Assembly: GCA_030744755.1 (NCBI GenBank)
Contig: JASLPY010000002.1
Span: 67,006 to 131,005 of the forward strand
Length of the DNA stretch: 64,000 nt
Origin: Kiritimatiellia bacterium
Lineage (GTDB): Bacteria > Verrucomicrobiota > Kiritimatiellia > UBA8416 > JADHWI01
Direction of reading: 5' to 3'
Shown here: positions 35,987-58,957 of the stretch, in pieces
Layout: the number at the start of each line of letters is the position of its first letter
Position numbering within the stretch: the first letter of the stretch is position 1
Position numbers and translations under genes: made by a program
The notes under the pieces: model-generated
The model's input: only the letters and a program-made list of their open reading frames with translations
Told to the model about the DNA's origin: nothing
The model's database searches: none

Positions 35987-36048
35987 GGCGGACGTTGAGA
36001 AGGAAATTTGAATGAGGAAGAGGAACGCATGAGTTGCCTTTCTCTTTC

Positions 36049-36067
36049 TGTGGGCGGCCCGCCCACA
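36049..36067. promoter_or_regulatory. Perfect 19-bp palindrome tgtgggcgg-c-ccgcccaca between the two flippase-like genes
   Basis: Exact dyad. On the minus strand it is followed by A/G-rich rather than U-rich sequence, so not a classical terminator. Confidence 0.3.
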
Positions 36068-36092
36068 AGGGGTTTATGCCTGGATCAACGAA

Positions 36093-37277: not shown

Positions 37278-37358
37278 GGTCGCCGGCAAATGGCACCAAC
37301 ATAAAGCTATTCGCGCTTGCTTGCATTTTGACCGCAATCGTGGAATGCTTCTTCCGGT

Positions 37359-38486: not shown

Positions 38487-38915
38487 ATGAAAAATCTGGC
38501 GGCAGGTTATATAGGTATAGTGCTCACAGCGGTCTGCGCGTTTGCCCTGATGTCGGGGTGTGATGGAGGTGGAGGCGGCAGTTCGTCATCGGCGGTTGTA
38601 GACATTGCCGGTTCTTGGTCGGGGTCTTACGAGAACGAGGAAACCGGCGAGCATGTGTCGATCTCGGCAACAGTGGACCAGGACGGATCCGGAGTTGTCA
38701 TCAAGACCACTAAGGGCAACCCTCCGGGGCAGTCTCTGTCGGGTTCGATGGACGGGAACGCCAACCTCACGATGACAGACGCTGGTGATGGTGAAGTCTG
38801 GACGAGTTTTACGCCGACTACGGCCGGCCGCATAGTGATAACCGACTTCACTTACCAGCCGCAAGCGGGGGACTCGAACGACGTACCCAGGAAGATCATC
38901 GATCTGCGCCGGTGA
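38487..38915 (+). CDS. Lipoprotein, hypothetical
   Basis: Lipobox LMSGC, then a Gly/Ser linker and a small beta-rich domain. Confidence 0.5.
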   Translation: MKNLAAGYIGIVLTAVCAFALMSGCDGGGGGSSSSAVVDIAGSWSGSYENEETGEHVSISATVDQDGSGVVIKTTKGNPPGQSLSGSMDGNANLTMTDAGDGEVWTSFTPTTAGRIVITDFTYQPQAGDSNDVPRKIIDLRR

Positions 38916-42478: not shown

Positions 42479-45010
42479 ATGGATACCAAGCGAATTATCC
42501 TTATCTCCCTTCTGCTTACAGTGGTCTGCTGGGTGGTTTTTTCCTGGCCCCTGCCGCGCTACTTCGGGTCGGGGGTGACAAGATCGGCCGAGAGGCACGG
42601 AAACATAGTCCGGAGAATGGTTCCCGGCGATCATCTCCAGCTCATGTATCACTTCTGGCTGGCAGGAGACATGGTTGCCGGTAAGACGCCTGCTTTCCAG
42701 AACATCTACGAGTTCAACGAGGGCAATGACGAAGACTGTATAAGAAGATCTTTTTACTTTGCGCCTTACTCGCTTGTAAGCAGCCTGGCGTCCCTGGCGG
42801 GCGGGCAGGCCTTCGGCTGGAATTTCGCAAGCGTTCTCTCCCTGTGGCTTACTTATCTCTTTACCTGGAGACTTGTGGCAAGGTACAACCCGGACGAGCT
42901 GCAAGCAGCGGTCGCCGCAATGGTCGGCCTGCTCCTTCCATTTCGGTGGCACGGTGTGTGCGAGGGAAGTCCGATAGGTTTCGCAATGTCGTGGATTCCC
43001 GCGCTCATGCTCGGCATAGACGGGGTAATGCGCAAGGGATCCAAAAGCAGCGCGGTACTTGCGGGATGCGCCCTGATGTTCTCCGGTTGGGGGGATGCCC
43101 ACGTATTCTTCTTTGCGGCCCTGATGATTCCTGTCTGGGGGATCATCACGTGGCTTGCCCTGCCGGACCGGAACCTTAAAGTTGTCGGCATGCGCCTTCT
43201 TTCTGTTTGGCCAGCCATACCATTTGCCCTGTCATCCTCTATCAATCTGTTCTGGAAACAGGAAAGAATCGCCGATTCGGGTCTTGAAAAAGGGTGGGAC
43301 CTGATTTACGTGGCTTTATGCTCTCCCAGCCCGGGCGGACTGTTCAGCAGAGCCTTCGAGGGTGACACGCGCGGTATCTACATAGGATGGTTCCTGATCG
43401 TGTGTGTCGCGGTGGCTGCGACAGTGTTACTGACACGCGCCTTCCGGCATAGGACTTCTGATCATCGCATGACCTGTGTGTTCTTCATTCTTCTTGCTGG
43501 AATGTTCATCATCACACTTCTGGCCATGGGTACAAAAGCCCCTGCAGGGGGGGCGGTCATTAAGACCGTAAGGTTAATCTTCTCTCCCTACCGAAAGATC
43601 AGGCAGCCCGACAAGATATTCGTCGTGATGCCGTCACTGTTGGCCATTGCATCGGGTATCACCCTTTCGACCTGGATCGGTCTTATCAGGCAACGGCTGT
43701 GGAAATACGGTTGCGTTGTGGTCTTCGCGGTTGTGATATTCGCCGACTATAACAAACATATTGCACCGGAGATATGTCTCATCGATTCTGAACAGAAGGC
43801 TTATGAAGCCATAGTCACGGATGCCGCGAAGACAGGCGATGTTCCCAGGGCCGTCGCGGTTCCCCTCTGGCCGGGTGATTCTCACTGGTCATCGCTTTAC
43901 GAGTACTATGCGTCACTTTACAGAATCCGTTTCTTGAACGGATACTCACCAGTGGCGAAAAAGCGGTACGTCGAAGAGGTGTTTCTCAAGCTGAAACCCC
44001 TGAATATGGGGTATATTTCCGATGATCACATCAAACACCTTGACGATATGGGAATCCGCTACCTGGTGCTGCACGAAGATGCTTTTCCCGAGAAGGTAAG
44101 CCTCTTCCCTGTTGCAATGACGCTGAAACGTCTGCTCAATCATCCCCGGTTGGAGCTTCTCCGGCAGGAAGAAAGCGTATGGTCATTCAAGATCATGGAT
44201 GAACCGATCACGAAGGATGTACTCGGAACAGACTGGCAGGTTCACTTTCCCAGCAGAAAGTGGGAAATGGAACGGGTAAGGACGGATACAGGCGAGGAAT
44301 TGACTGATAGTCGGGCCTCGCGGGGCCGGTACCGTCGGATCGCGGCAGGAGATGTCGTGACCGGTAAGGGCACGAGCGCGGTGTATTTTGAAGGCCTGAA
44401 ATGGCAACTACGCGCCAAGGGAGAGGGTGTTCTTAAGGTGACAACTTTCTCTGAGGACGAAGCACTGTGTGCAACCAATGTCACGATGTCAACGGATGAG
44501 TGGGAATGGGTGGATATCCCGATAGGAAGTTTTGAGAACGCGCCCCGCACCGCAGGGCGCTTAGATTGCCAGGAAGGCAGTGTTGACCTGGACCTGCTTC
44601 TTCTTTCGGCAGGTGAGTGGGCCGGTCCCCAAGTCGGTGGCAGCATAAAGATTCCGGCAGCCTGTTTCTTCCATGCCGGCTACACCGATATTGAGAACGG
44701 GGAAGTGGTGCTGAGAGCATCAAGGGACGCCGCCGAAGAGGTCATTTACGCAAAGAACCTGCGGTTGGATCCGGGCGCTTATCGCGTTGAGATGGAATAC
44801 TCGTCGGATGGTGAGGACGGTGCAGTGCTGGGTTCTCTGATATACCGGTTCGAGAATGTGGAACCCGAAGGATCAACTGCCGTGACAGACGGTTTGCCGG
44901 CCAGTCTGGAGTTTGTGCATGAACGGGATGTTCCTTTTCGACTGGCTTTTCGTTTTAACCGGACTCGCGATGTGAGAATCGGCACAGTAACTATCAACCG
45001 GACCAGGTAG
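42479..45010 (+). CDS. Large polytopic membrane protein with a C-terminal soluble domain (YfhO/GT-C-like architecture)
   Basis: 843 aa. N-terminus PGDHLQLMYHFWLAGDM..GKTPAF followed by many transmembrane helices, then a roughly 350-aa extracytoplasmic C-terminus. Confidence 0.5.
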   Translation: MDTKRIILISLLLTVVCWVVFSWPLPRYFGSGVTRSAERHGNIVRRMVPGDHLQLMYHFWLAGDMVAGKTPAFQNIYEFNEGNDEDCIRRSFYFAPYSLVSSLASLAGGQAFGWNFASVLSLWLTYLFTWRLVARYNPDELQAAVAAMVGLLLPFRWHGVCEGSPIGFAMSWIPALMLGIDGVMRKGSKSSAVLAGCALMFSGWGDAHVFFFAALMIPVWGIITWLALPDRNLKVVGMRLLSVWPAIPFALSSSINLFWKQERIADSGLEKGWDLIYVALCSPSPGGLFSRAFEGDTRGIYIGWFLIVCVAVAATVLLTRAFRHRTSDHRMTCVFFILLAGMFIITLLAMGTKAPAGGAVIKTVRLIFSPYRKIRQPDKIFVVMPSLLAIASGITLSTWIGLIRQRLWKYGCVVVFAVVIFADYNKHIAPEICLIDSEQKAYEAIVTDAAKTGDVPRAVAVPLWPGDSHWSSLYEYYASLYRIRFLNGYSPVAKKRYVEEVFLKLKPLNMGYISDDHIKHLDDMGIRYLVLHEDAFPEKVSLFPVAMTLKRLLNHPRLELLRQEESVWSFKIMDEPITKDVLGTDWQVHFPSRKWEMERVRTDTGEELTDSRASRGRYRRIAAGDVVTGKGTSAVYFEGLKWQLRAKGEGVLKVTTFSEDEALCATNVTMSTDEWEWVDIPIGSFENAPRTAGRLDCQEGSVDLDLLLLSAGEWAGPQVGGSIKIPAACFFHAGYTDIENGEVVLRASRDAAEEVIYAKNLRLDPGAYRVEMEYSSDGEDGAVLGSLIYRFENVEPEGSTAVTDGLPASLEFVHERDVPFRLAFRFNRTRDVRIGTVTINRTR

Positions 45011-45047: not shown

Positions 45048-45719
45048 TCAGGCCTGTCTTCTCTGGCGGTAAAGGCTGGGGTCTGTCACCTCTGCCATCT
45101 TCTCACGATCCATACCGCTGTCTAGAAAATCCGCGACCTTTGCCGCCGTTGCTGCGGAATCGGCAAGAGTCTGGTTATAGTTGCAGTAAAACACATCGAA
45201 ACACTCTCGGTCTGCGAGCCATTCCCTGGTGTCCGCAAGGTGCTTCTCGAAAAGAGCTTTCATCTTATCATCGCCTGGACCACCCGGTTTCCCGCGTCTT
45301 TCGAGCATCTTCTGCTGAGAAGCAAGAGTCTCATCGAGATCTCGGATCATGAAGATAACCTTGTACCGACGGTCTTCCGGCAGATCTCTGAGCAGCATGG
45401 ATATCATTTTGACAACCTTGCCCTCGGCATCATCCAACCACGAAGCATCCTCCTTCGTCTTCTTGACTTTCTCCAACTCGTAGTATCCCCGGGGATTATC
45501 TTCGTCTGCTTCGCGAATCCCGTCCGTCACAGTATTCATGCCTCCGGCTTCGAGCATCTTCATCATCATTGAAGTCCCGGAACGTGGAAGACCTGAAACA
45601 ATCGTTATCAAAACCAACTCCCTCCATTGACCCAAACCCGAAAGGCCTTTGATCTTGCCCTGCGGCAAACACATCCTTGTACTGTTATCGTGCGGCAGAC
45701 TATAGCACCCTGCAGCCAA
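45048..45719 (-). CDS. Sulfotransferase-family protein
   Basis: PAPS 5'-phosphosulfate-binding P-loop IVSGLPRSGTSMMMKML, with a sulfotransferase-like remainder. Start ambiguous: TTG at 45719 or ATG at 45674. Confidence 0.7.
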   Translation of the reverse strand: MAAGCYSLPHDNSTRMCLPQGKIKGLSGLGQWRELVLITIVSGLPRSGTSMMMKMLEAGGMNTVTDGIREADEDNPRGYYELEKVKKTKEDASWLDDAEGKVVKMISMLLRDLPEDRRYKVIFMIRDLDETLASQQKMLERRGKPGGPGDDKMKALFEKHLADTREWLADRECFDVFYCNYNQTLADSAATAAKVADFLDSGMDREKMAEVTDPSLYRQRRQA

Positions 45720-45864: not shown

Positions 45865-47550
45865 ATGACTGAGAACAGTGCTCCTGTCCGGGTAGCCGTT
45901 ATGGGCGCTGGCTACTGGGGAAAGAACATAATCCGCTCGATGAACAGTCTTGGATCGCTGGCGGCAATCTGTGACAGCGAAGAAGACAGGCGGAAGGCAT
46001 TTGCTGAACAGTATCCCGAATGCAGAATCGTCAGCGCATATTCTGATATCCTGGAAGACAAGGACATCCCGGCGGTAGCCGTCGCCACGCCCGCGGAATC
46101 GCATTCGGACTTCGTGAGAAAAGCTCTCCTCGCGGGCAAAGACGTGTTCGTAGAGAAGCCACTGTGTCTGTCGCCGGAGACGGGCAGAGAGTTGGTCGCC
46201 CTTGCCGAAAGCCGCGGCCTGATCCTGATGGTCGGACACCTCCTCTGGTACCATCCCGCAGTATTGAAGCTTAAAGCGATGATTGATGAAGGCGCATTGG
46301 GCCGTATTCAATACGTGTACTCCAATCGTCTCAACCTGGGGAAAATACGGCGGGAGGAAAACATCCTCTGGTCTTTCGCGCCTCATGATATATCCGTTAT
46401 TCTCGGTCTGTTGGGAGAGATTCCCGACCACGTTTCCGCTCACGGAGGTAACTACCTGCATAGCCATATTGCAGATGTCACGGTGAGCGTCTTGTCTTTT
46501 CCCAGCGGTGTGAAAGCCCACGTCTTCGTGTCATGGCTGCATCCATTCAAAGAGCAAAAGCTTGTGGTTGTTGGCGAGAAGAAGATGGCGGTGTTCGATG
46601 ACGTGGAGAAAGAGAACAAGCTCATGCTCTATCCGCATTCCATCGACTGGAAGAACAAGATGCCGATTGCAAACAAGGCAGAAGCCCAGGCGGTTGAGAT
46701 AGAGAACGTTGAGCCTCTCAGAGAAGAGTGTGCCCACTTCCTTGACTGCGTAGCAAAAAGGGTCACGCCAAGAACGGATGGCAAGGAAGGGTTGCGTGTC
46801 CTAACTGTACTCGAGCGTTGCCAAAGGGCTATGGACCTGGAGACTGCCCAGGAGGCGGGAAGCCAGGATGAAGAGGAGGACAAGCACGTGCCCGGAGATT
46901 TCTTCGTACATGAGAGCGCATGTGTTGATGATGGCGCAAGGATAGGCAAGGGAACGAAGATCTGGCATTACTCTCATGTGCAGGCAGGCAGCACAGTTGG
47001 AGCGAACTGCTCGCTGGGCCAGAACGTTAATATTGCCAACGACGTTGTGATGGGCAACAACGTAAAAATCCAGAACAATGTCAGCCTGTACAAGGGTACA
47101 GTCATTGAAGACGATGTATTCCTCGGGCCTTCCTGTGTTCTGACCAATGTCAGCAATCCGCGCTCGCAAGTGAGCCGCCGCTCAGTATACGAGAAGACGC
47201 TCATCCGCAGAGGGGCGACGATTGGTGCCAACTCAACGATTGTGTGCGGAGTGGAGATAGGCCGTTACGCTTTCGTTGCGGCGGGCGCGGTTGTCACGAA
47301 GGATATAGCCGATTACGCACTTGTGAGGGGGAATCCCGCAAGGGCGGTGGGATGGATAAGCAGACACGGTCACCCACTTTCCGAGCCGGATGAAGAGGGC
47401 ATAATGGTCTGCCCGGAAAGCAAGTTGCGATACAAGGAATCTGAGCCGGGCGTCCTTCGATGCCTGGATGTTGACGAAGAAGATGTGCTTCCCGAGAAGC
47501 TGGCCGTTGGAAAACATCCTTACCGGTCTTTCAAGGAGGCTCAGCAGTAG
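45865..47550 (+). CDS. Bifunctional Gfo/Idh/MocA sugar dehydrogenase plus hexapeptide N-acetyltransferase (WbpB/WlbA-like fused to WbpD/WlbB-like)
   Basis: Ribosome-binding site aaggagac. N-terminal VRVAVMGAGYWGKN...VFVEKPL. C-terminal left-handed beta-helix repeats (..IGANSTIVCGVEIGRYAFVAAGAVVTKD..). Confidence 0.8.
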   Translation: MTENSAPVRVAVMGAGYWGKNIIRSMNSLGSLAAICDSEEDRRKAFAEQYPECRIVSAYSDILEDKDIPAVAVATPAESHSDFVRKALLAGKDVFVEKPLCLSPETGRELVALAESRGLILMVGHLLWYHPAVLKLKAMIDEGALGRIQYVYSNRLNLGKIRREENILWSFAPHDISVILGLLGEIPDHVSAHGGNYLHSHIADVTVSVLSFPSGVKAHVFVSWLHPFKEQKLVVVGEKKMAVFDDVEKENKLMLYPHSIDWKNKMPIANKAEAQAVEIENVEPLREECAHFLDCVAKRVTPRTDGKEGLRVLTVLERCQRAMDLETAQEAGSQDEEEDKHVPGDFFVHESACVDDGARIGKGTKIWHYSHVQAGSTVGANCSLGQNVNIANDVVMGNNVKIQNNVSLYKGTVIEDDVFLGPSCVLTNVSNPRSQVSRRSVYEKTLIRRGATIGANSTIVCGVEIGRYAFVAAGAVVTKDIADYALVRGNPARAVGWISRHGHPLSEPDEEGIMVCPESKLRYKESEPGVLRCLDVDEEDVLPEKLAVGKHPYRSFKEAQQ

Positions 47551-47636
47551 CCTTCCTGATTCGTTTAGGGAGCCTGCCGCATGACCACGAGATATCGCCT
47601 TGCCACGTTGAGCGGGCATTTAGAAAGGAATAAGAA

Positions 47637-48752
47637 GTGAACGTACCCCTCTTGGATCTCAAGGCCCAATACCAGTCCATCAAGACGGAGATCGATCCTG
47701 TGGTAGCCGAGATAATGGAGTCCCAGTACTTTATTCTTGGTCCAAAAGTCAAGGAATGTGAAGAAGCGGTTGCCGCCTACTCGAACTGTAGCCATGCCAT
47801 CGGCGTCTCTTCGGGAACGGATGCCCTCCTCATTGCTCTTATGGCCGAAGGGATTGGCGCTGGAGACGAGGTCATCACTACGCCGTACACGTTTTTCGCC
47901 ACTGTCGGCTCAATCGTCCGCACCGGGGCAACTCCCGTGTTCGTGGATATCGATCCGGTCTCGTTTAACATAGACCCGTTGGCAATAGAGGAGAAGGTCA
48001 CGGACATGACCAAGGCGATCATTCCCGTTCACCTATACGGGCAGATGGCGGACATGGATCCGATCATAGAGATTGCCCGCAAGAATGGCATTGCGGTCAT
48101 TGAAGACGGCGCGCAGGCTATAGGCGCCGAGCGGAACGGGCAAAGAGCAGGATCTGTAGGAGACTACGGATGCTTCTCGTTCTTTCCGTCGAAGAACCTT
48201 GGCGCGTTTGGCGATGGCGGCATGGTTGTTACGAACGATCCGGAGAGAGCAGAAAGGCTCGAGATTCTGAGAGCTCACGGTTCCAGGCCCAAGTATTACC
48301 ATACGGTGATCGGCGGGAATTTCAGGCTGGATGCCTTGCAGGCGGCAGTAGTCACCGTGAAGCTATCCCACCTTGATTCGTGGACTGCAGGGCGCCAGTC
48401 GAATGCGCAGAGATACGACCGTCTCCTGGGCGAGACGGGCCTGGTGGAGAAAGGACTTGTTTCCCTGCCTACGGTGATAGCCAACAGACATATCTTCAAT
48501 CAATACGTGATACGGGTGGACAGAAGAGATGAGCTCAGGGATTACCTGAAAGAGAACTCGATCGGGTGCGAAATCTACTACCCGGTTCCGCTACACATTC
48601 AGGAATGTTTCAGCTACCTTGGGCTATCGAAGGGCGATATGCCCGAAAGCGAGAAGGCTGCCGACACAACCCTGGCACTGCCCGTGTACCCGGAACTGTC
48701 CGACGAGCAGGCGAAGTACGTGGTAGACACGATAGCATCTTTCATGTCTTGA
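47637..48752 (+). CDS. DegT/DnrJ/EryC1/StrS-family PLP-dependent sugar aminotransferase (WbpE-like)
   Basis: GTG start with ribosome-binding site gaaagga. [12 protein letters not shown] lysine motif [19 protein letters not shown]. Confidence 0.9.
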
Positions 48753-48762
48753 GGGCTGAGTC

Positions 48763-50868
48763 TCAGCGGCCCTGCCAGGTATAGAGCCGAAATACGCGGG
48801 TCTTGTGCTTGATCTTGAAGTCAGACATTCGCTTGTGATGGATTATCTCGTCTACGTTGATCGTTCCACTGGTCCAATCGAGCTCGACCTTTCCAGGATC
48901 CATGGGATAGACAGTCAGTCCACGTTCCGTTGAGGTGAGGAAACGTATCTTTGCGCCCTCGTTTCTCAGGCGTTCAAGGGCGGCAAGGCCAGCAGACATT
49001 GTCTGTCCTCCGTCTCTTGCATAAAAAGTGCGGGCGTTAAGGATTCTTACGCCGTGAAGAAAACGAAGCGGAGTTCCCCACCACGGGTGATCCACGACAA
49101 CGATGTCCTCCGGATCAATCTGTTCGGCGACTTCCGCCAGGGCTGCCGACAGGCCATCGTACTCGGTCCGATTCCAGGCATGCCAGCTACTCTTTGCCGA
49201 AGATAGAAGCACGGCCATGAGAATGATCACGGCAAGGCCCTTACCCCATGGAATTCGCCCGGCGGTTCGCGGCCAAAGCCAGTGACACAGGTAAGCAAGG
49301 AGTATGGAAAGACAAGGGACTGTGAACTGAAGATAGCGCCGCGTTGCCCAGGGGTAAATCATGGCCATGAAACTCTGGATAAGTACAACGGCAGTGACTG
49401 CCGCCAGCCAGCATATGACAATTCTAAGCAGATGAGTTTCTTCCCCCTGTTTAGAGTAGAGCACCAGGGCTCCAAGAGCGGCGGCAATCATATATCCCCA
49501 ACCGAGGTAGGGAAGTATTCTGCGCAGGCTTGTGGCAGTACCGGCCATACAATCAACGCCGGCGGAGAACCATATTGCAGGGAGAGCAATAATGGCCAGG
49601 GAACAGGCTGCCGGCGAAAGCCATGATGGAGTCTTCTCCATGAATCTCCGCACCAGGGGCCGGCAAGCTATTTCATCTAAAACAACCGCCGCAATGGCAA
49701 AACCTGCCCCTGCCTTGACGAGCGTCGGAACCACACGCTGGAGTTGCTCGGTAGTAACCGATGTCACGAAGATATCAAAACATCCGCCGAGAATAAGCGC
49801 CATTACGAGCGTGGACCGTTCGAACCTCACCCGCCATCTGTCCTTACGTGTTCTGTCCTGCCAGGCGATGCATGGAAGCAACATGGCGCCAAATGGCATG
49901 AAGCTGATGCGGTTTAATTCGGCGGCCATTACGGTCGCGGCCAGGAGTACGGGTGCAGCGTAGCCGGTGGTGCGGATAGAAAGAAGCAAGGCAATGCAGC
50001 ATACAAGCAGCAACTGCAGCATCTCGGAAACCGGAATGTGCAGGTGATAAAGCCACAGCGGATGTGCCGCCAGGCATATTGCTGCGGCAACAGCGCAGAA
50101 TGGATCTCTGATCTCCCCCAGGAGAAACGCCGCAAGCATTGCGCACGCAAAGAAACCAAGAATGAAGTTAACCCGCGTTGCGGCACGAAGTCCCCCGCAT
50201 CTTGCAACTATGCTTATTGCTGTCGGGCTCAGGCGATAGAAGTAATTACGAACGGCCCGGGTTTCCCGGTCCAGCGGGATTCCCGGGAAACACTCACGGT
50301 AATCGCCGGCGCCCTTGCCTCCCCTGCGGGTGAAGACGATGAATTCTTCATCCGTGAGATTCTCGTAGGCATTCTCGGGCTCGGGATAGAACGTTCCTGT
50401 CTGTGCAACCCATGCGCCCTGGTTCAGGTAAACGCCCGGGTCCCACCCTCCGACAATCCATTCACCAGATTTCGGCAGCCACATGATAGCGGTCATTGCG
50501 AGTGCGAAGATGACGGTGCCTGGGAGCGAAAGAACGATGCCATTGAACAAGAGTTTACGCTCCCTGGCGAGCCCGGTCAGAATCCCAGAAGCCACGAGGA
50601 TCAGAGAGACGGTAATCTCGGTTCCGAGTGTGCAGACCCCTGCTTCGCATAACGCGAGTGAAACGAGTAGAGAACTGACAAGACCGATAAGAAATGCCTG
50701 GGCAGAACGAACAAGGCTGCGAACCCAACACAGCCCGGCACAGCGTTCCGGGAACGGCAGAATCCAGACCCAGGCCGCGCCGACCAGAACGAACCTGAGA
50801 CACAAAACGGCCGTGCAAGTTATCCACGGGTTGGCTGCAACTGTATGAATCGAAGGCGGCGCCAGCAT
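48763..50868 (-). CDS. Polytopic membrane protein (GT-C-like), divergent partner of the polyprenyl-phosphate GT
   Basis: 701 aa. At least 12 transmembrane helices with one large periplasmic loop (..GWDPGVYLNQGAWVAQTGTFYPEPENAYENL..). Confidence 0.55.
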   Translation of the reverse strand: MLAPPSIHTVAANPWITCTAVLCLRFVLVGAAWVWILPFPERCAGLCWVRSLVRSAQAFLIGLVSSLLVSLALCEAGVCTLGTEITVSLILVASGILTGLARERKLLFNGIVLSLPGTVIFALAMTAIMWLPKSGEWIVGGWDPGVYLNQGAWVAQTGTFYPEPENAYENLTDEEFIVFTRRGGKGAGDYRECFPGIPLDRETRAVRNYFYRLSPTAISIVARCGGLRAATRVNFILGFFACAMLAAFLLGEIRDPFCAVAAAICLAAHPLWLYHLHIPVSEMLQLLLVCCIALLLSIRTTGYAAPVLLAATVMAAELNRISFMPFGAMLLPCIAWQDRTRKDRWRVRFERSTLVMALILGGCFDIFVTSVTTEQLQRVVPTLVKAGAGFAIAAVVLDEIACRPLVRRFMEKTPSWLSPAACSLAIIALPAIWFSAGVDCMAGTATSLRRILPYLGWGYMIAAALGALVLYSKQGEETHLLRIVICWLAAVTAVVLIQSFMAMIYPWATRRYLQFTVPCLSILLAYLCHWLWPRTAGRIPWGKGLAVIILMAVLLSSAKSSWHAWNRTEYDGLSAALAEVAEQIDPEDIVVVDHPWWGTPLRFLHGVRILNARTFYARDGGQTMSAGLAALERLRNEGAKIRFLTSTERGLTVYPMDPGKVELDWTSGTINVDEIIHHKRMSDFKIKHKTRVFRLYTWQGR

Positions 50869-50988
50869 GTGCCGATACTAGCCGACTCCAAACAGGGCCT
50901 CAAGCAGTTTCGGACTCGTGCCTAATGTACTCGACACACTTAGTGCAATCCGTTACGTTCCGGTGGTTCTGGCGATCAAGGAGTGAGC

Positions 50989-51942
50989 ATGGAAGACATG
51001 CAGAATAAGTCTGAAACAACAGTGATAATGCCGGTTTTTAATGAGGCTGGAGCTGTCGCGGACGTCTTGCGAGAGCTTACCGCATCATCAAGAGATATCG
51101 GGTTTCAAGTGATTGTTGTGGATGACGGTTCTACCGATGGATCGGCGGCGGTCGTTGACGGCTTTAAGGATCAGGTTCAGGTGATTCACCACACGTCCAA
51201 CCATGGATACGGTGCCGCCCTGAAAACAGGGATTCTTGCCACGCGTGCCCAGAACGTCGTCTTCTTCGACAGCGATGGCCAGCACAAGACTGAGAATATG
51301 GCCGAACTTATTGGGCTCCTTGCTGAGCACGAATTCGTTTTCGGAGAACGGCCGAAAGGTGGTGGGTCGCCGTTGATCAGACAACCCGGTAAATGGGTAC
51401 TTGGCAAGGTCTGCAATTTTCTTGCCCTGCGCAAGATTCCCGACATCAACTGCGGTTTCCGGGGAGGAAGGCGACGGATCTACATGCGGATGCTGGACCT
51501 GTTGCCTGACGGGTTCTCTTTCTCGACAACTTCCCTGTTGTTCGCTCTGCGCAGCCGCTACTCCACGGTGTTTATGCCAGTGCGGGCGGACGCGCGTCAG
51601 GGCAAGAGCTCGGTCCGGATATTCTACGATGGGTTCAAAACGCTGCTTCTGGCCCTGAGGCTGATGATGCTTTTTGATCCCATGCGCGCCTTTGGATACC
51701 CGGCGATGGGGCTGATCCTTGTGGGGGTGATCTACCAGATTTTCATATTCTCTACCGCGGGGCTTCATATTGAGGGCGGCGCGATTCTCTCACTGCTTGC
51801 CGGCGTGATTCTGTTCCATTTCGGCTTACTTGGCGACCAGGTGGCATCTTTGCGAAAGGAGATGAGCTCGCAGACAAGCCTTTTCTGGGAGGAACACGAA
51901 TTCTTGGAACGCCGGCAAAGCCAACTCGAAAATCAACAGTAA
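50989..51942 (+). CDS. GT2 polyprenyl-phosphate glycosyltransferase (ArnC/GtrB/DPM1-like) with C-terminal transmembrane helices
   Basis: Ribosome-binding site aaggag. VIMPVFNEAGAV..VIVVDDGSTDGS..FFDSDGQH, plus two C-terminal transmembrane helices. Confidence 0.8.
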   Translation: MEDMQNKSETTVIMPVFNEAGAVADVLRELTASSRDIGFQVIVVDDGSTDGSAAVVDGFKDQVQVIHHTSNHGYGAALKTGILATRAQNVVFFDSDGQHKTENMAELIGLLAEHEFVFGERPKGGGSPLIRQPGKWVLGKVCNFLALRKIPDINCGFRGGRRRIYMRMLDLLPDGFSFSTTSLLFALRSRYSTVFMPVRADARQGKSSVRIFYDGFKTLLLALRLMMLFDPMRAFGYPAMGLILVGVIYQIFIFSTAGLHIEGGAILSLLAGVILFHFGLLGDQVASLRKEMSSQTSLFWEEHEFLERRQSQLENQQ

Positions 51943-51953: not shown

Positions 51954-53171
51954 ATGAAAAACCATAGCCGCGTATCCTCGCTCCTTATAATCTGTCACGG
52001 CTATCCCCCTTACTACGGGGGCGGGGAAGGGGTCGCGGCCGGGATTGCATCGGAAGTCGCACGCTCATCAAGCTACAACGTCACCGTGCTCACATCCGAT
52101 ATTGGAGGGCGACTCAAGGAACGTGAGATTCTACAGGGCGTTTCCGTGATCCGGATTCCGGCGATGAAGAGGGAATGGTCTCGTCACACCGTGGTGGAGC
52201 TCCTGTCTTTCTATGTCTCTGCCGTCCGCCGTCTTCGCTCGATACATGAAGAGATACGACCGGATCATGTACTAGCCATTTTCTCCATGCCGGCAGGGCT
52301 TGTTGCCTTGAAGTGGTTCCGGATGTTCGGCGTTCCTTATTCTGTTGGACTCCACGGCTCGGATGTGCCGGGCTATCAGCCCCGCAGGTTTCGTCTGCTG
52401 CATCCGGCAATGCGCCTCGCCGTGCGGCGAGTATGGTCAAATGCGGAGAACGTTTTCGCCGTGAGCTCAAAACTTAAGGAGCTCGCATTGAAAACATGGC
52501 CGAAAGGGAGAATTGAGGTCATCCCAAACGGTGTGGATACTCGTCGCTTCCATCCTGGTAATCCCGAGGACAGTTGTAAAGGAAGACTCCGCATGGTGCT
52601 CGTATCGCAGCTGATAGAAAGGAAAGGCATTCAGTATCTCCTTGAAGCACTGGCCGAAATGGACCCCTCCCTGGGCGAGAAACTTGAAGTCGATATATAT
52701 GGCACTGGTGATTACCGTAGAACCCTTGAAGAGCAGGTGCGTGACCTCCGGCTGGGTGACCGTGTATCATTAAACGGTCTGCTGGAAACGGAAGAGCTTG
52801 CGAAGACGCTCCATGACGCCGATATGTTTGCTCTGCCTTCCCTGCAGGAAGGTCTCCCACTGGCATTACTGGAGGCCATGGCATGCGGGTTGCCCATTGT
52901 GGCGACGGCCGTGGGTGATGTTCCGAGCGTGATGCGTGACAATATCAACGGACGCCTGGTGGCACCTGCCGATAGCCAGGCTCTTTGCCGTGCCGTTTCG
53001 GCAATGGTGGCGGACTCTGAACTGCGCAGTCAACTGGGCAAACAGGCCAGGCTTACCGCGGAAGATTACTCATGGGACAGAATATGGGCTCGCTATGATA
53101 CTTCGCTGTCCCGAGGGACCGACACGAACGAGGGTGCCTGTTCTGCAGCGAAAGAGAGCGAGGTAAACTAA
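51954..53171 (+). CDS. Family 4 glycosyltransferase
   Basis: GT4 pattern including ..LPSLQEGLPLALLEAMACGLPIVAT.. Confidence 0.85.
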   Translation: MKNHSRVSSLLIICHGYPPYYGGGEGVAAGIASEVARSSSYNVTVLTSDIGGRLKEREILQGVSVIRIPAMKREWSRHTVVELLSFYVSAVRRLRSIHEEIRPDHVLAIFSMPAGLVALKWFRMFGVPYSVGLHGSDVPGYQPRRFRLLHPAMRLAVRRVWSNAENVFAVSSKLKELALKTWPKGRIEVIPNGVDTRRFHPGNPEDSCKGRLRMVLVSQLIERKGIQYLLEALAEMDPSLGEKLEVDIYGTGDYRRTLEEQVRDLRLGDRVSLNGLLETEELAKTLHDADMFALPSLQEGLPLALLEAMACGLPIVATAVGDVPSVMRDNINGRLVAPADSQALCRAVSAMVADSELRSQLGKQARLTAEDYSWDRIWARYDTSLSRGTDTNEGACSAAKESEVN

Positions 53172-53174: not shown

Positions 53175-55316
53175 ATGGCACTACAACCCATAAACCGCGA
53201 ACAGGGGGACCAGCTTTCCGAGGTCTATCTGGGTGAGCGCAGCGACAGCGAAACGCAGCGAGTCACTCGAGAACGCGTGGAATGGATGTGCCGGGAGGCT
53301 GAAGGCCCACGCGTGATGGACGTAGGGTGCAGTCAAGGAATGACATCTACACTTGTAGCCAGGCAGGGATTGTTCTGTGTGGGGGTGGACGTTTCTCGTG
53401 ACGGTTTAGCCTATGCTGAGAACCTGAAGCGCAAGGGAAGTCCTGAGGTTAAAGAACGCCTGAGTTTCGTGTCTGCCAGTTGTTTCGAGTTGCCTTTCAA
53501 CGGTGATTACTTCGACAGTTGCCTTCTGGGTGAGGTCTTGGAACACTTAGAATGCCCCCGGGAATGCCTGGCGGAAACAGCCAGGGTGCTGAAGCCGGGC
53601 GGCAAAGCCGTAATCACCGTCCCATTTGGTCAGTTGCCGCACCCTGATCACAAAAGGGTTTACCATTTCACTTCTTTCCTCGCCGAGGTCGAAGCATTTT
53701 TTGACCCGGTTTCGATGGATCTGGTTGACAAACGAATACGTTTCGTCGGAAGACTCAGATCATCGGCGCCAGACGCAAAGCATGACAGTGTCGACAAGGG
53801 CCGTTTGCTTGAGAAGGCCGAACTGTTCATTGATGCACTGGAGGAATCGAAGGAAAACGAACAATTACGATTGAATATGGCTTTTGATCAACGAAAGAAG
53901 GCCCTTGAACAGCGCGATAGAAGCCTCGAGCACCTTCAGAGATTGGAAAATGGCGAAGGAGTTTCCAGACTCATTCGGGAAGTAGCACGCAAGCGAATGA
54001 GCTGGGTTGTGAGGGATTTGAGGAAGAATGGGTTCGGTTGGACCCTGATGAGGTGCTTTCGGAAGACCCTCAGGTTGATGATCAAACTGATGTCTAATTG
54101 CTTCAGCGTTTTGAAGAAGATACTGGATCTTCTCAGGGAAGAGAGGGTATGCAAGAAAGCAAGAGCCATATTTACAAAACGTCTTGCAGGTTTCGTGGAG
54201 AAAGCAAACAGCCACGATTCCAAACGTGTTGTCGTGATATTCTCCGGGACGAAGGAGATTAGGGAGATCTATGGAAACCGTCCCATGCGACAAACCAGGA
54301 TTCTTCTCGACGGAAGTACTCCCGTATTATTCTCCTACTATCGCTGGAACAAGACTGACCGTCTGGCAGAGAGTAATCGTCCGCTGCTTCTGCAATCTCC
54401 CATCGACTTCACAATGGAGTTCTTCTCCCAGATAATGCAGGCAGATTTCCCCGGCAAAGAGAAGATATTCATCGTGTCGTTCCCTCATCCTTTCATCGTT
54501 CGCAGGCTGAATGAACTGCACACGTGGGGCTGGCGAACCATCTATGATGTTCGTGATAACTGGGGGGAATTTGCGGTAGTGGGTGCAGCTCGCTGGTATG
54601 ACCAGGATGTAGAGCGGTATGTTGTCAACAACGTAGAGGCATGTTGCTGCGTCGCAGCTCCCCTTAGAGACAAGATCCAGGGTTTCACTACCAACAAGAC
54701 GGTGCACCTCAACCCGAACGCCTTCGATGTTCTGTTTCTGAAACCAGAGAACCGTGGACGGGTGGCCCCCAGGAGCGGACCGAAGATTGTCGGTTACTTC
54801 GGCCATCTTACACCTGCCTGGTTCGACTGGAAGAGGCTCAATGCAGTTGCTCGATTGTTACCGGAATGGACGTTCGAGGTAGTAGGACGGGATGCAGAAG
54901 GACATGGGGACCTGGAACGTAATATCTGTCTATCCGGACCGAAGTCTCATGCGGAACTGAACGAGATAACACAGCGTTGGCGGGTAGCCATGATCCCGTT
55001 CAAGATGGGCCCATTGGCTGATGGTGTGGATCCGATCAAGATCTACGAATACCTCGCAATGGGTTTGCCCACAGTCTCTTTCCGCATGCCCCAGATACAT
55101 GAGTACCCATATGTGTTTCCTGTGTATTCTGTCGAGGAATTCGCCGAAAAGATTGTCGAAGCATCTGAAGTGTCCATCGACAGAGAAGCTATTGACATGT
55201 TTCTCTCGGCCAATACCTGGGAAATCAGGGTCGACGAAATGTTAAGTCTTTTGATGGATCCTGAATTGACGCCTTGTGATCTGCAACTGCTCAATCCCGG
55301 CGGAGGCAATTCATGA
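53175..55316 (+). CDS. Fusion: class I SAM-dependent methyltransferase, coiled-coil linker, then a GT-B-like glycosyltransferase domain
   Basis: N-terminal VMDVGCSQGMTS...LKPGGKAVITVP. Central K/E/R-rich coiled-coil. C-terminal ..DPIKIYEYLAMGLPTVS.. resembles the GT4 donor-binding helix. Confidence 0.65.
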   Translation: MALQPINREQGDQLSEVYLGERSDSETQRVTRERVEWMCREAEGPRVMDVGCSQGMTSTLVARQGLFCVGVDVSRDGLAYAENLKRKGSPEVKERLSFVSASCFELPFNGDYFDSCLLGEVLEHLECPRECLAETARVLKPGGKAVITVPFGQLPHPDHKRVYHFTSFLAEVEAFFDPVSMDLVDKRIRFVGRLRSSAPDAKHDSVDKGRLLEKAELFIDALEESKENEQLRLNMAFDQRKKALEQRDRSLEHLQRLENGEGVSRLIREVARKRMSWVVRDLRKNGFGWTLMRCFRKTLRLMIKLMSNCFSVLKKILDLLREERVCKKARAIFTKRLAGFVEKANSHDSKRVVVIFSGTKEIREIYGNRPMRQTRILLDGSTPVLFSYYRWNKTDRLAESNRPLLLQSPIDFTMEFFSQIMQADFPGKEKIFIVSFPHPFIVRRLNELHTWGWRTIYDVRDNWGEFAVVGAARWYDQDVERYVVNNVEACCCVAAPLRDKIQGFTTNKTVHLNPNAFDVLFLKPENRGRVAPRSGPKIVGYFGHLTPAWFDWKRLNAVARLLPEWTFEVVGRDAEGHGDLERNICLSGPKSHAELNEITQRWRVAMIPFKMGPLADGVDPIKIYEYLAMGLPTVSFRMPQIHEYPYVFPVYSVEEFAEKIVEASEVSIDREAIDMFLSANTWEIRVDEMLSLLMDPELTPCDLQLLNPGGGNS

Positions 55317-56374
55317 CGAAGATACTGTTTCTTTATCAGTATGCAGTACTCGGAGGTTGCACTACACAACTTCGTAACCGAATGGCTCTCACGGGTCTTG
55401 GCATTGAACCGCACTTCGTGTTTGCCCGGGAACATGGTGGCACTAAAGCGTTTGGCGACTACCCTCATGTGAAGAGTGAAATCACAGACGACCAACTCAA
55501 GGCACTGATTCTGCAAAACGGTTTCGAGGTAGTGTCGGTTCTGGATGCCCCTGGATATCTCCGGTTGTTGGCCGAAATGAACTTCAAAGGCAAGATAGTC
55601 TGTGAAGTTCATACGACCTATCCGAAAGCACTCGAGTACCTTGCCGATGACAACCTGATGTCCGCGGTCGACATGTTCATAACCCCCTCCCAGTACCAGA
55701 TGAACATGATAAAGGAGCGCTCGCAGGCGGCGCTCTCCGTGCCTGTACAGGTAGTGCCGGATTGCATTGATGCGGATCTGTTCCGGCCCGTAGATATATT
55801 TCCGGAATCACCCCATCCCATCGTTCTGTGGGTGGGTAAGCTTGACGATCACAAGAACTGGCGGGGATTCCTTTCTATGGCTCGGGGAATCGCAGCCGAG
55901 CGTCCGGATACCGAGTTCTGGATGGTAGGCGGCGAAGCCGCAGGGGATGATGTAGTGAGCAAGTTACTGTCCGAGATGACAGACAAGGATCTTGCCTCAT
56001 CTCTTCGATGGATCGGCCGGGTTGAGCATGACAGGATGCCGCCATTGTACAGTCTGGTGGCGCGACGCCAGGGGTGCATGCTGGTTACATCACACGGGGA
56101 ATCTTTTTGTACGGCTGCCGTGGAAGCCATGTTTTGCGGTTGTCCCGTAGTAGCCCCCCGGCACACCGCCTTGCCGGAGATCGTCTGTCACGAGACCCAT
56201 GGCCTGCTGTACGCACCAGGTGATGAACGGGACGCAGTTGACCAGACCATTCGCCTGCTTTCGGATAAGCAGCTGTGGGCGAGTATTGCGGCACGAGACG
56301 CAAACGAACTTCCTGGCAGATTCGGCACAACCGAAGTGTTGCGTAAGCTAAGAGATGTCTTTGAGAAGATATAG
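55313..56374 (+). CDS. Family 4 glycosyltransferase
   Basis: ATGA overlap with the upstream gene. GT-B C-terminal motifs (..TSHGESFCTAAVEAMFCGCPVVA..). Confidence 0.8.
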   Translation: MTKILFLYQYAVLGGCTTQLRNRMALTGLGIEPHFVFAREHGGTKAFGDYPHVKSEITDDQLKALILQNGFEVVSVLDAPGYLRLLAEMNFKGKIVCEVHTTYPKALEYLADDNLMSAVDMFITPSQYQMNMIKERSQAALSVPVQVVPDCIDADLFRPVDIFPESPHPIVLWVGKLDDHKNWRGFLSMARGIAAERPDTEFWMVGGEAAGDDVVSKLLSEMTDKDLASSLRWIGRVEHDRMPPLYSLVARRQGCMLVTSHGESFCTAAVEAMFCGCPVVAPRHTALPEIVCHETHGLLYAPGDERDAVDQTIRLLSDKQLWASIAARDANELPGRFGTTEVLRKLRDVFEKI

Positions 56375-56471
56375 GAATACCCCTGTGGCCCACGACGCAA
56401 TTGAACTTCATATTGCCCTCAAGTGCCGGGTAACCAACCAGTGCCCTACGTCGAAAGGGAAGCGGCTGAAG

Positions 56472-58925
56472 ATGTTGCAGGACCGTATCAGTATCGTGTG
56501 GCTTCTCGCCCTGGTCCTTGTTGTCACCAGTGCGTGCAGCGACCGCCGGGAACAAAGGGCATCCGATCCGTTAACGAAGGAAAATGAGGTGGCAGCCGGC
56601 GAATCACGCTGGAAGATCGTGGCCAGGGAAATGAACTGGGTCGGCATTAGTGACGTAAAGACCTTTCAAGAAGACAACACAGTCAGCACAGTACTTCCCC
56701 CCATCAGCAACCGACATGTCCTTGTGATTGCCGATACCGCAGTCTCGGCGGTTGTTTCCACCAACTTTGCCGTAGAAACACAGGTGCGGTTGTCCGGGTG
56801 GAACTCCGTTCGTCTGATTACTCTCGGGATACACTTGGACAACGGAAACGTTATGTATCAAGGCAGAAAGAGTCATCCCGAACAGAATCGCTGGCTGAAC
56901 TTGCACGTGACCACGGCCAACCGCCTGAGATTGGCAGCGGACAATCCGAACCGCCCCTTGCCGACTGGGGCTTCAAACCGGGTGGACTTCGTGCGCGTTT
57001 ATGTAGTTGGGGCCCCCGGGACAGAAAGCAGGCTTGATGTGTTAGACGTACCGCTGGAGATCACCGAACCGGAGCCCTCGGAAATGCTTGCGGGCATTGA
57101 AGAAATCCTCGACCGGGACATCGGCAAAACGAGCTCCGAAATAGCGAACTACTTCGAACGCAAGAAACCTATCGGCTGGATCAAAGATGAATTTGCAGGG
57201 GAATCATCGGAGCGGGGCATCGCCCTCCTGGAAGACAATGAGTATACGACGGCGGTCCATCCGTCATTCGTCTTCCCTGAGAACCCAACATGGTGCGAAG
57301 ACCCCTTCAATGATGCCAATTGGCGCCTTCGCCTCCAAGGTTTCGACTGGTTGCATCAATTAACGGCGGCATCTGTCAGCAGCGGTTCGGATGAGTATTT
57401 CAAGAGGGCCATTTACCTCATCGAGGACTGGACGAGCGATATGCCGGGAAGAATGCCGCGCGATGTAATGGTCTGGAACGATCATTCTGTGCCTCTCCGC
57501 CTGGAGCGCCTTCTCAACTTCTTTGAAGTGCATCGTTCTCCTGCCATGGCACCGGATTCAACAGCTTTCCTCCTGCGCCTTATTCACGCCCATGCGCAGT
57601 TCTGTTCTGACGAAGATTTCTACGCGAGAAACCAGCCAACACGCGTTCATAACCACGCATTCTTCCAGGACCGGGCTCTTCTAAGGGCGGCGCTTTGTTT
57701 TCCAGAGTTCATACATGCTGAAGAATGGGAACGCACGGCTGCCCGAAGAATTGTGTTTCAGATGAATGAAGGGCTTACATCTGATGGCGTCTGGAAGGAG
57801 AACACGTCGGGCTACCACCTGGGGATGTTCAAGCACGTACAGAAACTCAACGCCTTATGGAAGTACCATGGTCGTCCCGAAGTGCTCAAGAAGGTGGAGC
57901 AGGACATGCTCAGATTCATTCTTGCGCTTGCCGAGGTCGATGGAGCTCTTGTGGCGTTCGGAGATAATCCCAGGCACTTAATGCGGGCCGAAGTTGAGAC
58001 AGAACAACTCGATGCAAAATACATCTTCTCCCAGGGCAAAGTCGGCCATGCACCGGAATGGATAGATCAGGCATTTCTCGACAGTGGATATGTAGCCATG
58101 CGCGACCGGTGGTGGCCCGAAGACAGGTTCTACATGGGTGCTCACACACTGATGCTTGCAGGTTTTAACTCAGTGACACACAAGCACCGTGACGATCTTT
58201 CTTTCTTGATATCCGCACAGGGGGAAAGGTGGCTCGTGGATCCCGGGTTCTATTCGTCAGATCGAGACGATCCTTTACAGATTTATGCATGGTCGGCGCG
58301 AGGGCACAACACTGTCTCGGTAGACGACCAGGACTTCCCGGTGGAACGGAGCCGGATAGGAAGTACAGCTGTAACGAAGTACAAATCGGAAGAATCGTTT
58401 GCATATGTTGAGGCCACAACAAAAGTCTACCGAAACATCGATTTCTATCGAAAGCTCGTCTACCTGAGGCCCAATGTCTGGTTTGTTCAAGACGTTCTCA
58501 AATCTCTTGATGGGATGAATCACAAATTTACGCAGAACTTTCATTTCTCGCCAGACAAGGAGGTAGCCGTGACGAAAGGTGTGCTGTCAATAACGGCTGA
58601 CTCGGGATCCGACATGCGCATTTTCAATCTGGATGGCCTCGGTGAACCCACTCTTCACAGAGGAGAGAAGGAGCCGCAAGTACTTGGGTGGTTCTTCCCC
58701 GTCTACGGACAGGCGGTTCCCTGCGTATGTGCAACCTATGTCCACACGGGAGAAGAAGCGCTCTTTTCAAAACTGATTGTGCTGTCCGGCGAAGATCCTT
58801 TGGCCCGTAAGTTCAAGGTTGCTCCGACCGGAGAAATCATGGGCATGTTGAAGTCGGAATTGCCCGCGGAGATCCTGGGGCGACTGGATATGACTTTCGG
58901 ACCTCCGAACAGCCGTCAACAGTGA
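56472..58925 (+). CDS. Heparinase II/III-like protein (alginate-lyase-like toroid plus Hepar_II_III beta-domain), lipoprotein
   Basis: Lipobox VVTSAC after the ATG at 56472. N-terminal beta-sandwich. The conserved ..HKHRDDLSFLISAQGERWLVDPG.. block is typical of the heparinase II/III family. Confidence 0.7.
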   Translation: MLQDRISIVWLLALVLVVTSACSDRREQRASDPLTKENEVAAGESRWKIVAREMNWVGISDVKTFQEDNTVSTVLPPISNRHVLVIADTAVSAVVSTNFAVETQVRLSGWNSVRLITLGIHLDNGNVMYQGRKSHPEQNRWLNLHVTTANRLRLAADNPNRPLPTGASNRVDFVRVYVVGAPGTESRLDVLDVPLEITEPEPSEMLAGIEEILDRDIGKTSSEIANYFERKKPIGWIKDEFAGESSERGIALLEDNEYTTAVHPSFVFPENPTWCEDPFNDANWRLRLQGFDWLHQLTAASVSSGSDEYFKRAIYLIEDWTSDMPGRMPRDVMVWNDHSVPLRLERLLNFFEVHRSPAMAPDSTAFLLRLIHAHAQFCSDEDFYARNQPTRVHNHAFFQDRALLRAALCFPEFIHAEEWERTAARRIVFQMNEGLTSDGVWKENTSGYHLGMFKHVQKLNALWKYHGRPEVLKKVEQDMLRFILALAEVDGALVAFGDNPRHLMRAEVETEQLDAKYIFSQGKVGHAPEWIDQAFLDSGYVAMRDRWWPEDRFYMGAHTLMLAGFNSVTHKHRDDLSFLISAQGERWLVDPGFYSSDRDDPLQIYAWSARGHNTVSVDDQDFPVERSRIGSTAVTKYKSEESFAYVEATTKVYRNIDFYRKLVYLRPNVWFVQDVLKSLDGMNHKFTQNFHFSPDKEVAVTKGVLSITADSGSDMRIFNLDGLGEPTLHRGEKEPQVLGWFFPVYGQAVPCVCATYVHTGEEALFSKLIVLSGEDPLARKFKVAPTGEIMGMLKSELPAEILGRLDMTFGPPNSRQQ

Positions 58926-58957
58926 TTGAGCGGGTCTAACGAGAATACAGGCATAGA

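Follow-up and report, generated by a model that had tools for sequence, protein, structure and literature searches.

The locus described here poses a simple question: when a gene for a putative lipid-linked sugar synthase and a gene for a large membrane protein of no named family diverge from a short common gap, do their products work together? The two genes lie in a 64,000-nucleotide stretch of a Kiritimatiellia genome (contig JASLPY010000002.1, positions 67,006 to 131,005; hereafter the window), and an exact-sequence look-up traced both to a 185-kb contig of a Kiritimatiellia metagenome-assembled genome (MAG). On the minus strand, positions 48763-50868 encode a polytopic protein of 701 amino acids (aa), deposited as MDP6522839.1, 'hypothetical protein'; on the plus strand, positions 50989..51942 encode a 317-aa family 2 glycosyltransferase (GT2), MDP6522840.1. 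The answer that we consider probable, and hold with moderate confidence, is that the 701-aa protein is a glycosyltransferase (GT) of the GT-C fold, which uses the polyprenyl-phosphate sugar made by the GT2 to glycosylate, in the periplasm, the polysaccharide specified by the surrounding gene island.

Both open reading frames (ORFs) are present as the initial annotation of this DNA had listed them, and the 701-aa product is polytopic, with ~15 hydrophobic helices. They are real genes rather than chance ORFs, because each has many homologs. A word-indexed search with the 701-aa protein returned 48 full-length homologs, and an exhaustive profile search found 3,115 clusters at 50% identity with E<=1e-3, 410 of them with E<=1e-30; the GT2 has 2,048 homologs at E<=1e-30. 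The ORF lister placed the GT2 start at a GTG at 50983. In an intergenic alignment with the related locus L084, which carries an 83%-identical GT-C, this codon is not conserved and the ATG at 50989 is kept, with an AAGGAG Shine-Dalgarno sequence upstream, so that the start at 50989 and the 120-bp divergent gap given in the initial annotation are correct. The gap (50869..50988, between the two start codons) is ~86% identical to its L084 counterpart, and a promoter scan and a repeat search of it found neither a sigma-70-like promoter nor repeats. The GC content is ~0.55 throughout the window, with no trace of a foreign insert.

By sequence, the 701-aa protein belongs to an uncurated family that stands apart from the families searched. 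It had no match in Pfam, in NCBIfam or in the PDB, the last queried with the single sequence and with a profile, and none of 44 aligned homologs hit a Pfam family at E<=1. The curated GT-C sequence families that the family failed to match include PMT, PMT_2, STT3, YfhO, GT87 and DUF6541 of Pfam and ArnT of NCBIfam; judged by these searches, its sequence places the protein outside the ArnT, PMT and GtrC families. Its homologs are full-length 'hypothetical proteins' from MAGs of Verrucomicrobia, Lentisphaerae and Kiritimatiellia, and the family is restricted to the Planctomycetes-Verrucomicrobia-Chlamydiae (PVC) group.

The fold was more informative. An AlphaFold2 model built on the family alignment (pLDDT 90.7, pTM 0.93) was compared with the PDB by Foldseek, and the first 17 matches were all GT-C enzymes, with E values of 2e-5 to 5e-2 and probabilities of 0.97-1.00; they include DPY19 (1.9e-5), STT3, AglB, ArnT (1.7e-4), PglB, ALG12, ALG9, Pmt4 and AftD. 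Below rank 17 come transporters and G protein-coupled receptors with E >=0.15, probability <=0.2 and TM-scores of ~0.1, among them NKCC1, NorA and H+-PPase (probability <=0.15). No WaaL/O-antigen ligase, Wzy or SEDS structure occurs among the Foldseek PDB matches. The initial annotation had looked to fold prediction to distinguish a GT-C from a transporter or an O-antigen ligase, and with the top 17 matches all GT-C the model assigns the 701-aa protein the GT-C fold. Independent support comes from an 843-aa protein encoded in the same window (42479..45010, plus strand), itself a predicted GT-C: hhalign detected remote homology between the two families (probability 80%, E 1.4e-5, 490 columns), pairing residues 137-697 of the 701-aa protein with residues 18-573 of the 843-aa protein.

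Conservation within the family falls where a GT-C active site would be expected. Across 70 members sharing 24-83% identity, W137, D143, E282, R511 and D593 are invariant (70/70), and E192, R232, N319 and R/K510 are nearly so. We combined the AlphaFold2 helices with hydropathy and the positive-inside rule to predict the topology, the side of the membrane being set by the positive-inside rule and not by the coordinates. In the resulting model the N-terminus is outside and three extra transmembrane (TM) helices (15-36, 52-76 and 81-102) precede core TM1 (104-129). A periplasmic loop of ~100 residues (~130-232) would hold an interfacial helix and D143, and about eleven further TM helices would lead to a periplasmic C-terminal alpha/beta domain (557-701) that contains D593. 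All of the conserved residues are predicted to lie on the periplasmic side. D143 is ~13 residues past the helix aligned with TM1 of the 843-aa family, and in the model it takes the place of the conserved acidic residue that GT-C enzymes have in the extracytoplasmic loop behind core TM1. We considered the N-terminal helices as a fused GtrA-like 4-TM flippase and rejected the idea: in the hhalign alignment the fourth helix is already core TM1, so that the extension has no more than three TM helices, and none of the 44 family members scanned with Pfam matched GtrA.

The second gene of the pair could be classified with the usual tools. The GT2 matched PF00535 (E 1.2e-28) and aligned with solved structures of ArnC (8vxh, residues 7-303, E 9e-13) and GtrB (5ekp, residues 11-297). 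It consists of a GT-A domain, with the DXD motif in FFDSDGQH placing DSD opposite the DAD of ArnC (DADLQ), and two C-terminal TM helices; the alignments take in the motif and both helices, which bears out its earlier description as a DPM1/ArnC-like GT2 with C-terminal TM helices. In NCBIfam its top matches are without exception polyprenyl- or dolichyl-phosphate enzymes (AglJ, PpgS, ArnC and a Dol-P-hexose transferase), with near-complete coverage of the AglJ (2-291 of 293) and ArnC (6-301 of 316) models. From this evidence the GT2 belongs to the polyprenyl-phosphate glycosyltransferase class that includes ArnC, GtrB, DPMS, AglJ and PpgS. It falls short of every equivalog cut-off, with 81.6 against 325 bits for AglJ, 63.7 against 370 for PpgS and 48.4 against 529 for ArnC (NCBIfam). 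As far as such scores can tell, it is not an ortholog of ArnC, AglJ or PpgS, and since all scores are far below the cut-offs, sugar specificity is not transferable to it. Orthologs with 52-72% identity were found in >120 clusters.

If the two proteins are partners, their genes should keep company beyond this locus. Co-conservation was sampled in 81 non-redundant loci encoding members of the 701-aa family, in which polyprenyl-phosphate GT2s were recognised by a class-level profile. Its scores were cleanly bimodal: class members reached >=95 bits with coverage past position 233 (the window GT2 scored 322), and generic GT2s <=58 bits with coverage to ~120. Near some family members there are also short GT2s without TM helices that are ArnC-, AglJ- or PpgS-like by NCBIfam. 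Class GT2 genes adjoin the family gene (within 300 bp) in 16/81 loci and lie within 2 kb in 23/81. Their density is 3.6 per 10 kb at 0-300 bp from the GT-C gene (n=16), 0.35 at 300 bp-2 kb (n=8), 0.06 at 2-5 kb (n=2) and 0.12 at 5-10 kb (n=5), a 30-60 fold enrichment next to the GT-C over the 2-10 kb range. For other GT2s the enrichment is 3-5 fold (0.67 per 10 kb within 300 bp vs 0.12-0.22 at 2-10 kb). Among the window genes, the GT2 is the one found most often near family members (30/81 loci), followed by the GT4 (18) and the 843-aa protein (4); the latter was rejected as a general partner of the family, being nearby in only 4/81 loci.

The linkage takes three layouts. In 11 loci, which form one monophyletic subclade, the GT2 gene precedes the GT-C gene in an operon, with gaps <=4 bp or overlaps. 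In L023 and L061 it lies directly downstream of the GT-C gene on the same strand, and in L016, L056, L084 and the window the two genes diverge. The divergent layout is kept both in L084 and in L086, where the GT2 is 68% identical and where a GT-C of the 843-aa family and a PMT_2 gene are also present. L034 is rearranged yet linked, its family GT-C gene converging on the GT4 gene, and in L088 the family GT-C lies 5.6 kb from the GT2 ortholog. The link between GT2 and GT-C is thus well above chance, survives rearrangement and is not exclusive. In the operonic cassette, the GT2/GT-C pair diverges from a conserved NAD-dependent epimerase/dehydratase gene and a gene whose polytopic product has 540-620 aa and 10-13 TM helices (L057 1218-3697, L058 6314-8841, L079 6055-8663). 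This polytopic protein matched no family apart from a hit to Polysacc_synt at E 0.15 in 1/3 members, and it may be a Wzx-type flippase. Elsewhere in the sample, two distant loci (L057 6907-8383 and L007 13538-15314) share two genes that follow the family GT-C closely, one for a VTC-domain protein and the other for a DUF4956 membrane protein; L007 additionally encodes a CotH/LTD/LRR giant protein.

The mechanism that we propose has three steps. At the cytoplasmic face, the GT2 would charge polyprenyl (undecaprenyl) phosphate with a single sugar taken from a nucleotide sugar, as expected from its family membership; this sugar may be of the 3-acetamido type, produced by the dehydrogenase-acetyltransferase fusion and the DegT aminotransferase encoded next to the GT-C. 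The lipid-linked sugar would then be flipped, candidates for this step being two PF03706 (LPG_synthase_TM/MprF flippase-like) membrane proteins encoded at 34868-37463. Makarova et al. (2015, PMC5898192) found PF03706 at the C-terminus of AglD and next to AglD-like GT2s and PMT/STT3-like enzymes, and predicted that it acts as a flippase. Given this prediction and the fusion of PF03706 to a GT-C family (see below), these two proteins appear to be the best candidates for the third component. Finally, the 701-aa GT-C would use the flipped donor in the periplasm, with D143 as predicted catalytic acid/base, E282 as second acidic residue and R510, R511 and R232 as phosphate ligands, and the acceptor would most likely be the island polysaccharide. 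The 843-aa protein and a further, 785-aa GT-C of the island may draw on the same donor. The ArnC/ArnT- or GtrB/GtrC-type logic of the initial annotation holds at the level of fold and class linkage; a one-to-one pair is too simple for an island with at least three GT-Cs, one such GT2 and no GtrA.

Several observations weigh against the proposed partnership. About 70% of the 81 loci have no class GT2 in the available flank. L085, whose GT-C is 66% identical to that of the window, lacks the GT2 side, with Peptidase_S24 and T2SSG genes in its place, and retains the genes of the opposite side (DegT, acetyltransferase, oxidoreductase, sulfotransferase, 843-aa protein and pyruvyltransferase); in L025 and L001 the divergent neighbour is a GT4 gene, not a GT2 gene. 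L087, L091 and L092 have GT2 orthologs and no family GT-C in the available flank, and GT2 orthologs are more conserved than the GT-C (52-72% vs 33-46% identity). The window also has no GtrA-like flippase among its small multi-TM ORFs and intergenic gaps, and the third component of a Gtr system was not identified there. The gene distribution would suit a locus in which GT2 and GT-C are neighbours and not partners, the GT-C taking its donor from another synthase or, like an oligosaccharyltransferase (OST), ligase or polymerase, using an undecaprenyl-diphosphate-linked donor, and the GT2 serving the 843-aa and 785-aa GT-Cs or a housekeeping role; OSTs that use diphosphate-linked oligosaccharides are indeed among the fold matches. 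We regard this as an unlikely account that nonetheless deserves weight. It does not predict the steep enrichment of class GT2s beside the GT-C, which other GT2s do not share to that degree, or the tight operonic pairing across a whole subclade, or the retention of the divergent layout in L086 and of linkage in L034; moreover, the 701-aa protein lacks a WWDYG-type OST motif and resembles no WaaL, Wzy or SEDS structure among its fold matches. The co-conservation across genomes on which the initial annotation had staked the pair is therefore evident as an enrichment and fails as a rule, given the many loci without a class GT2 and its loss from L085.

A further point of this kind is that the invariant partner of the GT2 is the next gene downstream, which encodes a 405-aa GT4 of the GT-B type (51954..53171, plus strand; Pfam Glycos_transf_1 and Glyco_transf_4), a coupling tighter than that to the GT-C. 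The GT4 gene lies directly 3′ of the GT2 gene in 10/10 ortholog loci (the window and L034, L084, L086-L089 and L091-L093), with an 11-bp gap or, more usually, overlapping frames; a metagenome scan with the GT2 yielded five loci, on short contigs. Because this partner is invariant and the GT2 is more conserved than the GT-C, comparison of the loci suggests that the role of the GT2 is not bound to this one GT-C. L093 has a window-type GT2 + GT4 unit (9325-10748) 3.5 kb from a separate operonic GT2 + GT-C pair (2673-5821); two GT2 lineages thus coexist there and are probably not interchangeable. Such coupling would also be expected if the GT2, in the manner of AglJ, initiated a glycan on polyprenyl monophosphate, one or more GT4s extended it, and the GT-C moved the flipped oligosaccharide en bloc to a protein or polymer, as AglB does. 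Consistent with this, archaeal AglJ is the best family-level match of the GT2, over its full length, the 701-aa model has STT3, AglB and PglB among its top structural matches, and the scanned ORFs of the window yielded no phosphoglycosyltransferase of the Bac_transf or MraY type that could start a glycan. We nevertheless think it rather improbable: the AglJ score is far under its cut-off, a phosphoglycosyltransferase could lie beyond the 64-kb window (L008 has one close to its family GT-C), in the operonic subclade GT2 and GT-C are paired without a GT4, and the fold by itself cannot tell the donor types apart. We also know of no established monophosphate-linked oligosaccharide donor in bacteria. 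Finally, the TM-scores of the 701-aa model to solved GT-Cs are modest (0.32-0.42, below 0.5), and no curated enzyme family is matched by sequence, so one might picture a transporter or a scaffold of the polysaccharide export machinery instead of an enzyme. This we find scarcely credible, given that 17 GT-Cs and no transporter fold score better than E 0.15 or probability 0.2, that the invariant residues, acidic and basic, are grouped on the predicted periplasmic face as in a GT-C active site, and that the gene is linked to lipid-sugar synthases. Periplasmic transfer by the 701-aa GT-C from the product of the GT2 remains our preferred reading.

The pair sits within a polysaccharide island that occupies 23 to 64 kb of the window, and its gene content suggests a product that is apparently sulfated and pyruvylated. 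Seven plus-strand genes form an operon that opens with the GT2. Behind the GT2 and GT4 genes, Pfam and NCBIfam matches identify a 713-aa methyltransferase-GT fusion (53175-55316), a GT4 (55313-56374), two heparinase II/III-like proteins of 856 and 673 aa (56355-58925 and 58958-60979) and another GT4 (60976-62157), all on the plus strand; the section 53175..62157 is syntenic with L084. The 713-aa fusion, which is conserved in L084, joins an N-terminal S-adenosylmethionine-dependent methyltransferase to a C-terminal TuaH-like GT-B glycosyltransferase. The heparinase II/III-like proteins are placed between the GT4 genes of this biosynthetic operon; in such a setting they may carry out epimerase- or lyase-type tailoring of a glycosaminoglycan (GAG)-like polymer.

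On the other side of the GT-C gene, Pfam and NCBIfam matches identify a 561-aa fusion of a GFO-type 3-dehydrogenase to a hexapeptide N-acetyltransferase (WbpB/WbpD-like; 45865-47550, plus strand) and a DegT-family aminotransferase (47637-48752, plus strand), whose gene ends 10 bp from the GT-C stop codon. By sequence these genes (45865..48752) are candidate donor-sugar tailoring genes, and the dehydrogenase/acetyltransferase/DegT side stays beside the GT-C in L084, L085 and L025. In L085 (5969-7645) the dehydrogenase and N-acetyltransferase are separate genes (329 and 217 aa), and in L084 (13318-14207) gene calling gave the acetyltransferase portion (245 aa) and a remnant of 51 aa, and nothing more. 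The island further encodes a sulfotransferase (45048..45719, minus strand; PF13469 and PF00685), a marker of a sulfated glycan that is shared with L084 and L085, and a polysaccharide pyruvyl transferase (41233..42453, plus strand; PF04230, 6.4e-18) that adjoins the 843-aa GT-C in L084, L085 and L086. An FrhB/FdhB-like ferredoxin-domain protein is encoded 7 kb from the pyruvyl transferase (32658-34124, plus strand), and pairing of the two is common in exopolysaccharide (EPS) loci. The PF03706 genes are at 34868-35986 and 36093-37463 on the minus strand (Pfam 2.9e-37 and 4.6e-22), 11-16 kb from the GT2/GT-C pair. Epimerase/dehydratase and GDSL esterase genes are also present. Positions 38487-38915 (plus strand) encode a lipoprotein-like product of 142 aa that is rich in glycine and serine beyond its signal sequence; at the corresponding place, L084, L085 and L086 have ORFs of similar length (139-142 aa) that match nothing in Pfam. 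Adjoining the island, 18599-21040 (plus strand) encodes an 813-aa sulfatase whose catalytic domain begins at residue 380 and whose N-terminal 380 residues match no family.

The GT-C of the pair is one of several in the island. The 843-aa protein has no Pfam domain; its AlphaFold2 model (pLDDT 91.4) was matched by Foldseek to AftD (1.4e-11), then STT3, DPY19, Emb, AftA and ArnT, with target-normalised TM-scores of 0.53 against ArnT and AftA. Its tandem C-terminal carbohydrate-binding module (CBM)-like beta-sandwich domains matched CBM22 and GH101. Its family is PVC-restricted and has at least 265 members, four of which bear an N-terminal PF03706 flippase-like domain, a flippase-GT-C fusion (seen in P0241, P0234 and P0276). 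Phmmer and profile searches of the PDB with the 701-aa and 843-aa families gave no sequence route from either to a known family. The third GT-C, 785 aa (27948..30305, minus strand), is a PMT_2-family protein by its match to PF13231 (30.2 bits vs a cut-off of 26.1). The initial annotation had called it a second ArnT/PMT-like enzyme with a discoidin-like tail; the first part stands, and for the tail the F5_F8_type_C match is sub-threshold (18.6 bits vs 28.2, E 0.002). It is one of three consecutive large polytopic proteins encoded at 23205-30305 on the minus strand (726, 850 and 785 aa). The 726-aa protein has a weak DUF6541 match below the cut-off (E 5.5e-4), the 850-aa protein matches nothing, and neither had a match in NCBIfam; these two proteins may be further GT-Cs.

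A lipid-sugar synthase, a flippase and a GT-C make up a textbook three-component scheme, and for this reason the locus reveals no new mechanism; what is new is a GT-C sequence family working by known logic. If the proposal is true, several thousand membrane proteins now listed as 'hypothetical' in Kiritimatiellia, Lentisphaerae and Verrucomicrobiota would be candidates for periplasmic glycosyltransferases, probably constituting a new CAZy or Pfam GT-C family, and we gain a hint as to how bacteria known for sulfated GAG-like exopolymers attach sugars after export. A broader speculation, which we consider doubtful, is that Kiritimatiellia assemble or remodel a sulfated GAG-like exopolymer largely outside the cytoplasm, with a lineage-specific battery of GT-Cs, monophosphate-linked donors and PF03706 proteins replacing GtrA. 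In its strongest form, the speculation has the AglJ-like GT2 and the GT4 build an oligosaccharide on undecaprenyl monophosphate for en bloc transfer by the GT-C; bacteria would then possess a pathway of archaeal style.

Three-component systems have been reviewed and extended, and family GT136 was founded on a GT-C recognised only by its predicted fold (Kelly et al. 2024, PMC11127046). As in GtrA/GtrB/GtrC and GT136 systems, a polyprenyl-phosphate sugar synthase and a GT-C are encoded together in a polysaccharide locus, and across the family the two are co-located beyond chance, though not universally. The expected role, periplasmic addition of sugars after polymerisation, is that of GtrA/GtrB/GtrC, and like the GT136 enzyme the 701-aa GT-C resembles no existing family in sequence and owes its recognition to the predicted fold. 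The window differs from Gtr systems in that no GtrA/SMR or MATE flippase gene was identified in it, that its genes diverge rather than forming one operon and its GT2 is locked to a GT4, and that the island holds several GT-Cs, the 701-aa one with a 3-TM N-terminal extension before the core. Compared with ArnC/ArnT and its companions ArnA, ArnB and ArnD, which modify lipid A with aminoarabinose, the GT2 aligns full-length with ArnC structures (E ~1e-12), ArnT is among the fold matches of the 701-aa protein, and the DegT aminotransferase and N-acyltransferase beside the GT-C echo ArnB and ArnA. In contrast to that system, the GT2 is not an ArnC ortholog, the 701-aa GT-C has no sequence match to ArnT/PMT_2, the window system includes no deformylase, and the context is an EPS/capsule island and not a lipid A modification operon.

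The archaeal AglJ/AglD-PF03706-AglS/AglB systems (PMC5898192) offer other parallels. AglJ is the best family match of the GT2, STT3 and AglB are among the fold matches, and PF03706 genes occur in the island, with PF03706 fused to members of the sister (843-aa) GT-C family; the window system differs in being bacterial, with scores far below the equivalog cut-offs. Among the mycobacterial enzymes AftA-D, EmbA-C and PpgS/Rv3779, one decaprenyl-phosphate-sugar donor pool serves several GT-Cs. The 843-aa protein recalls these, with AftD as its best match and CBM-like domains as in the Emb and AftD enzymes; the mycobacterial systems differ in phylum, share no sequence homology, and the polymer of the window is apparently sulfated and pyruvylated.

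A comparable gene order is found in Pontiella (Kiritimatiellales), a genus that makes sulfated GAG-like exopolymers (van Vliet et al. 2020, PMC7356697). In Fig. 5 of that paper, a putative sulfated glycosaminoglycan cluster of P. sulfatireligans F21 runs from a transaminase (vioA) through a 'yfhO' membrane protein, an undecaprenyl-phosphate mannosyltransferase GT2 and a GT4 to a GtrA-like gene. The strain belongs to the same class, Kiritimatiellia, and by automatic gene names the order of its cluster matches the DegT, GT-C, GT2 and GT4 genes of the window, with sulfotransferase and methyltransferase genes nearby as well; unlike the window, it includes the GtrA-like gene. The arrangement has thus been drawn before, under auto-annotated names, as a gene map rather than an analysis of these genes. 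If the proposal is true, the locus offers D143, E282, R511 and D593 as candidate catalytic residues and, in Pontiella sulfatireligans F21, a cultured relative with the same local gene order.

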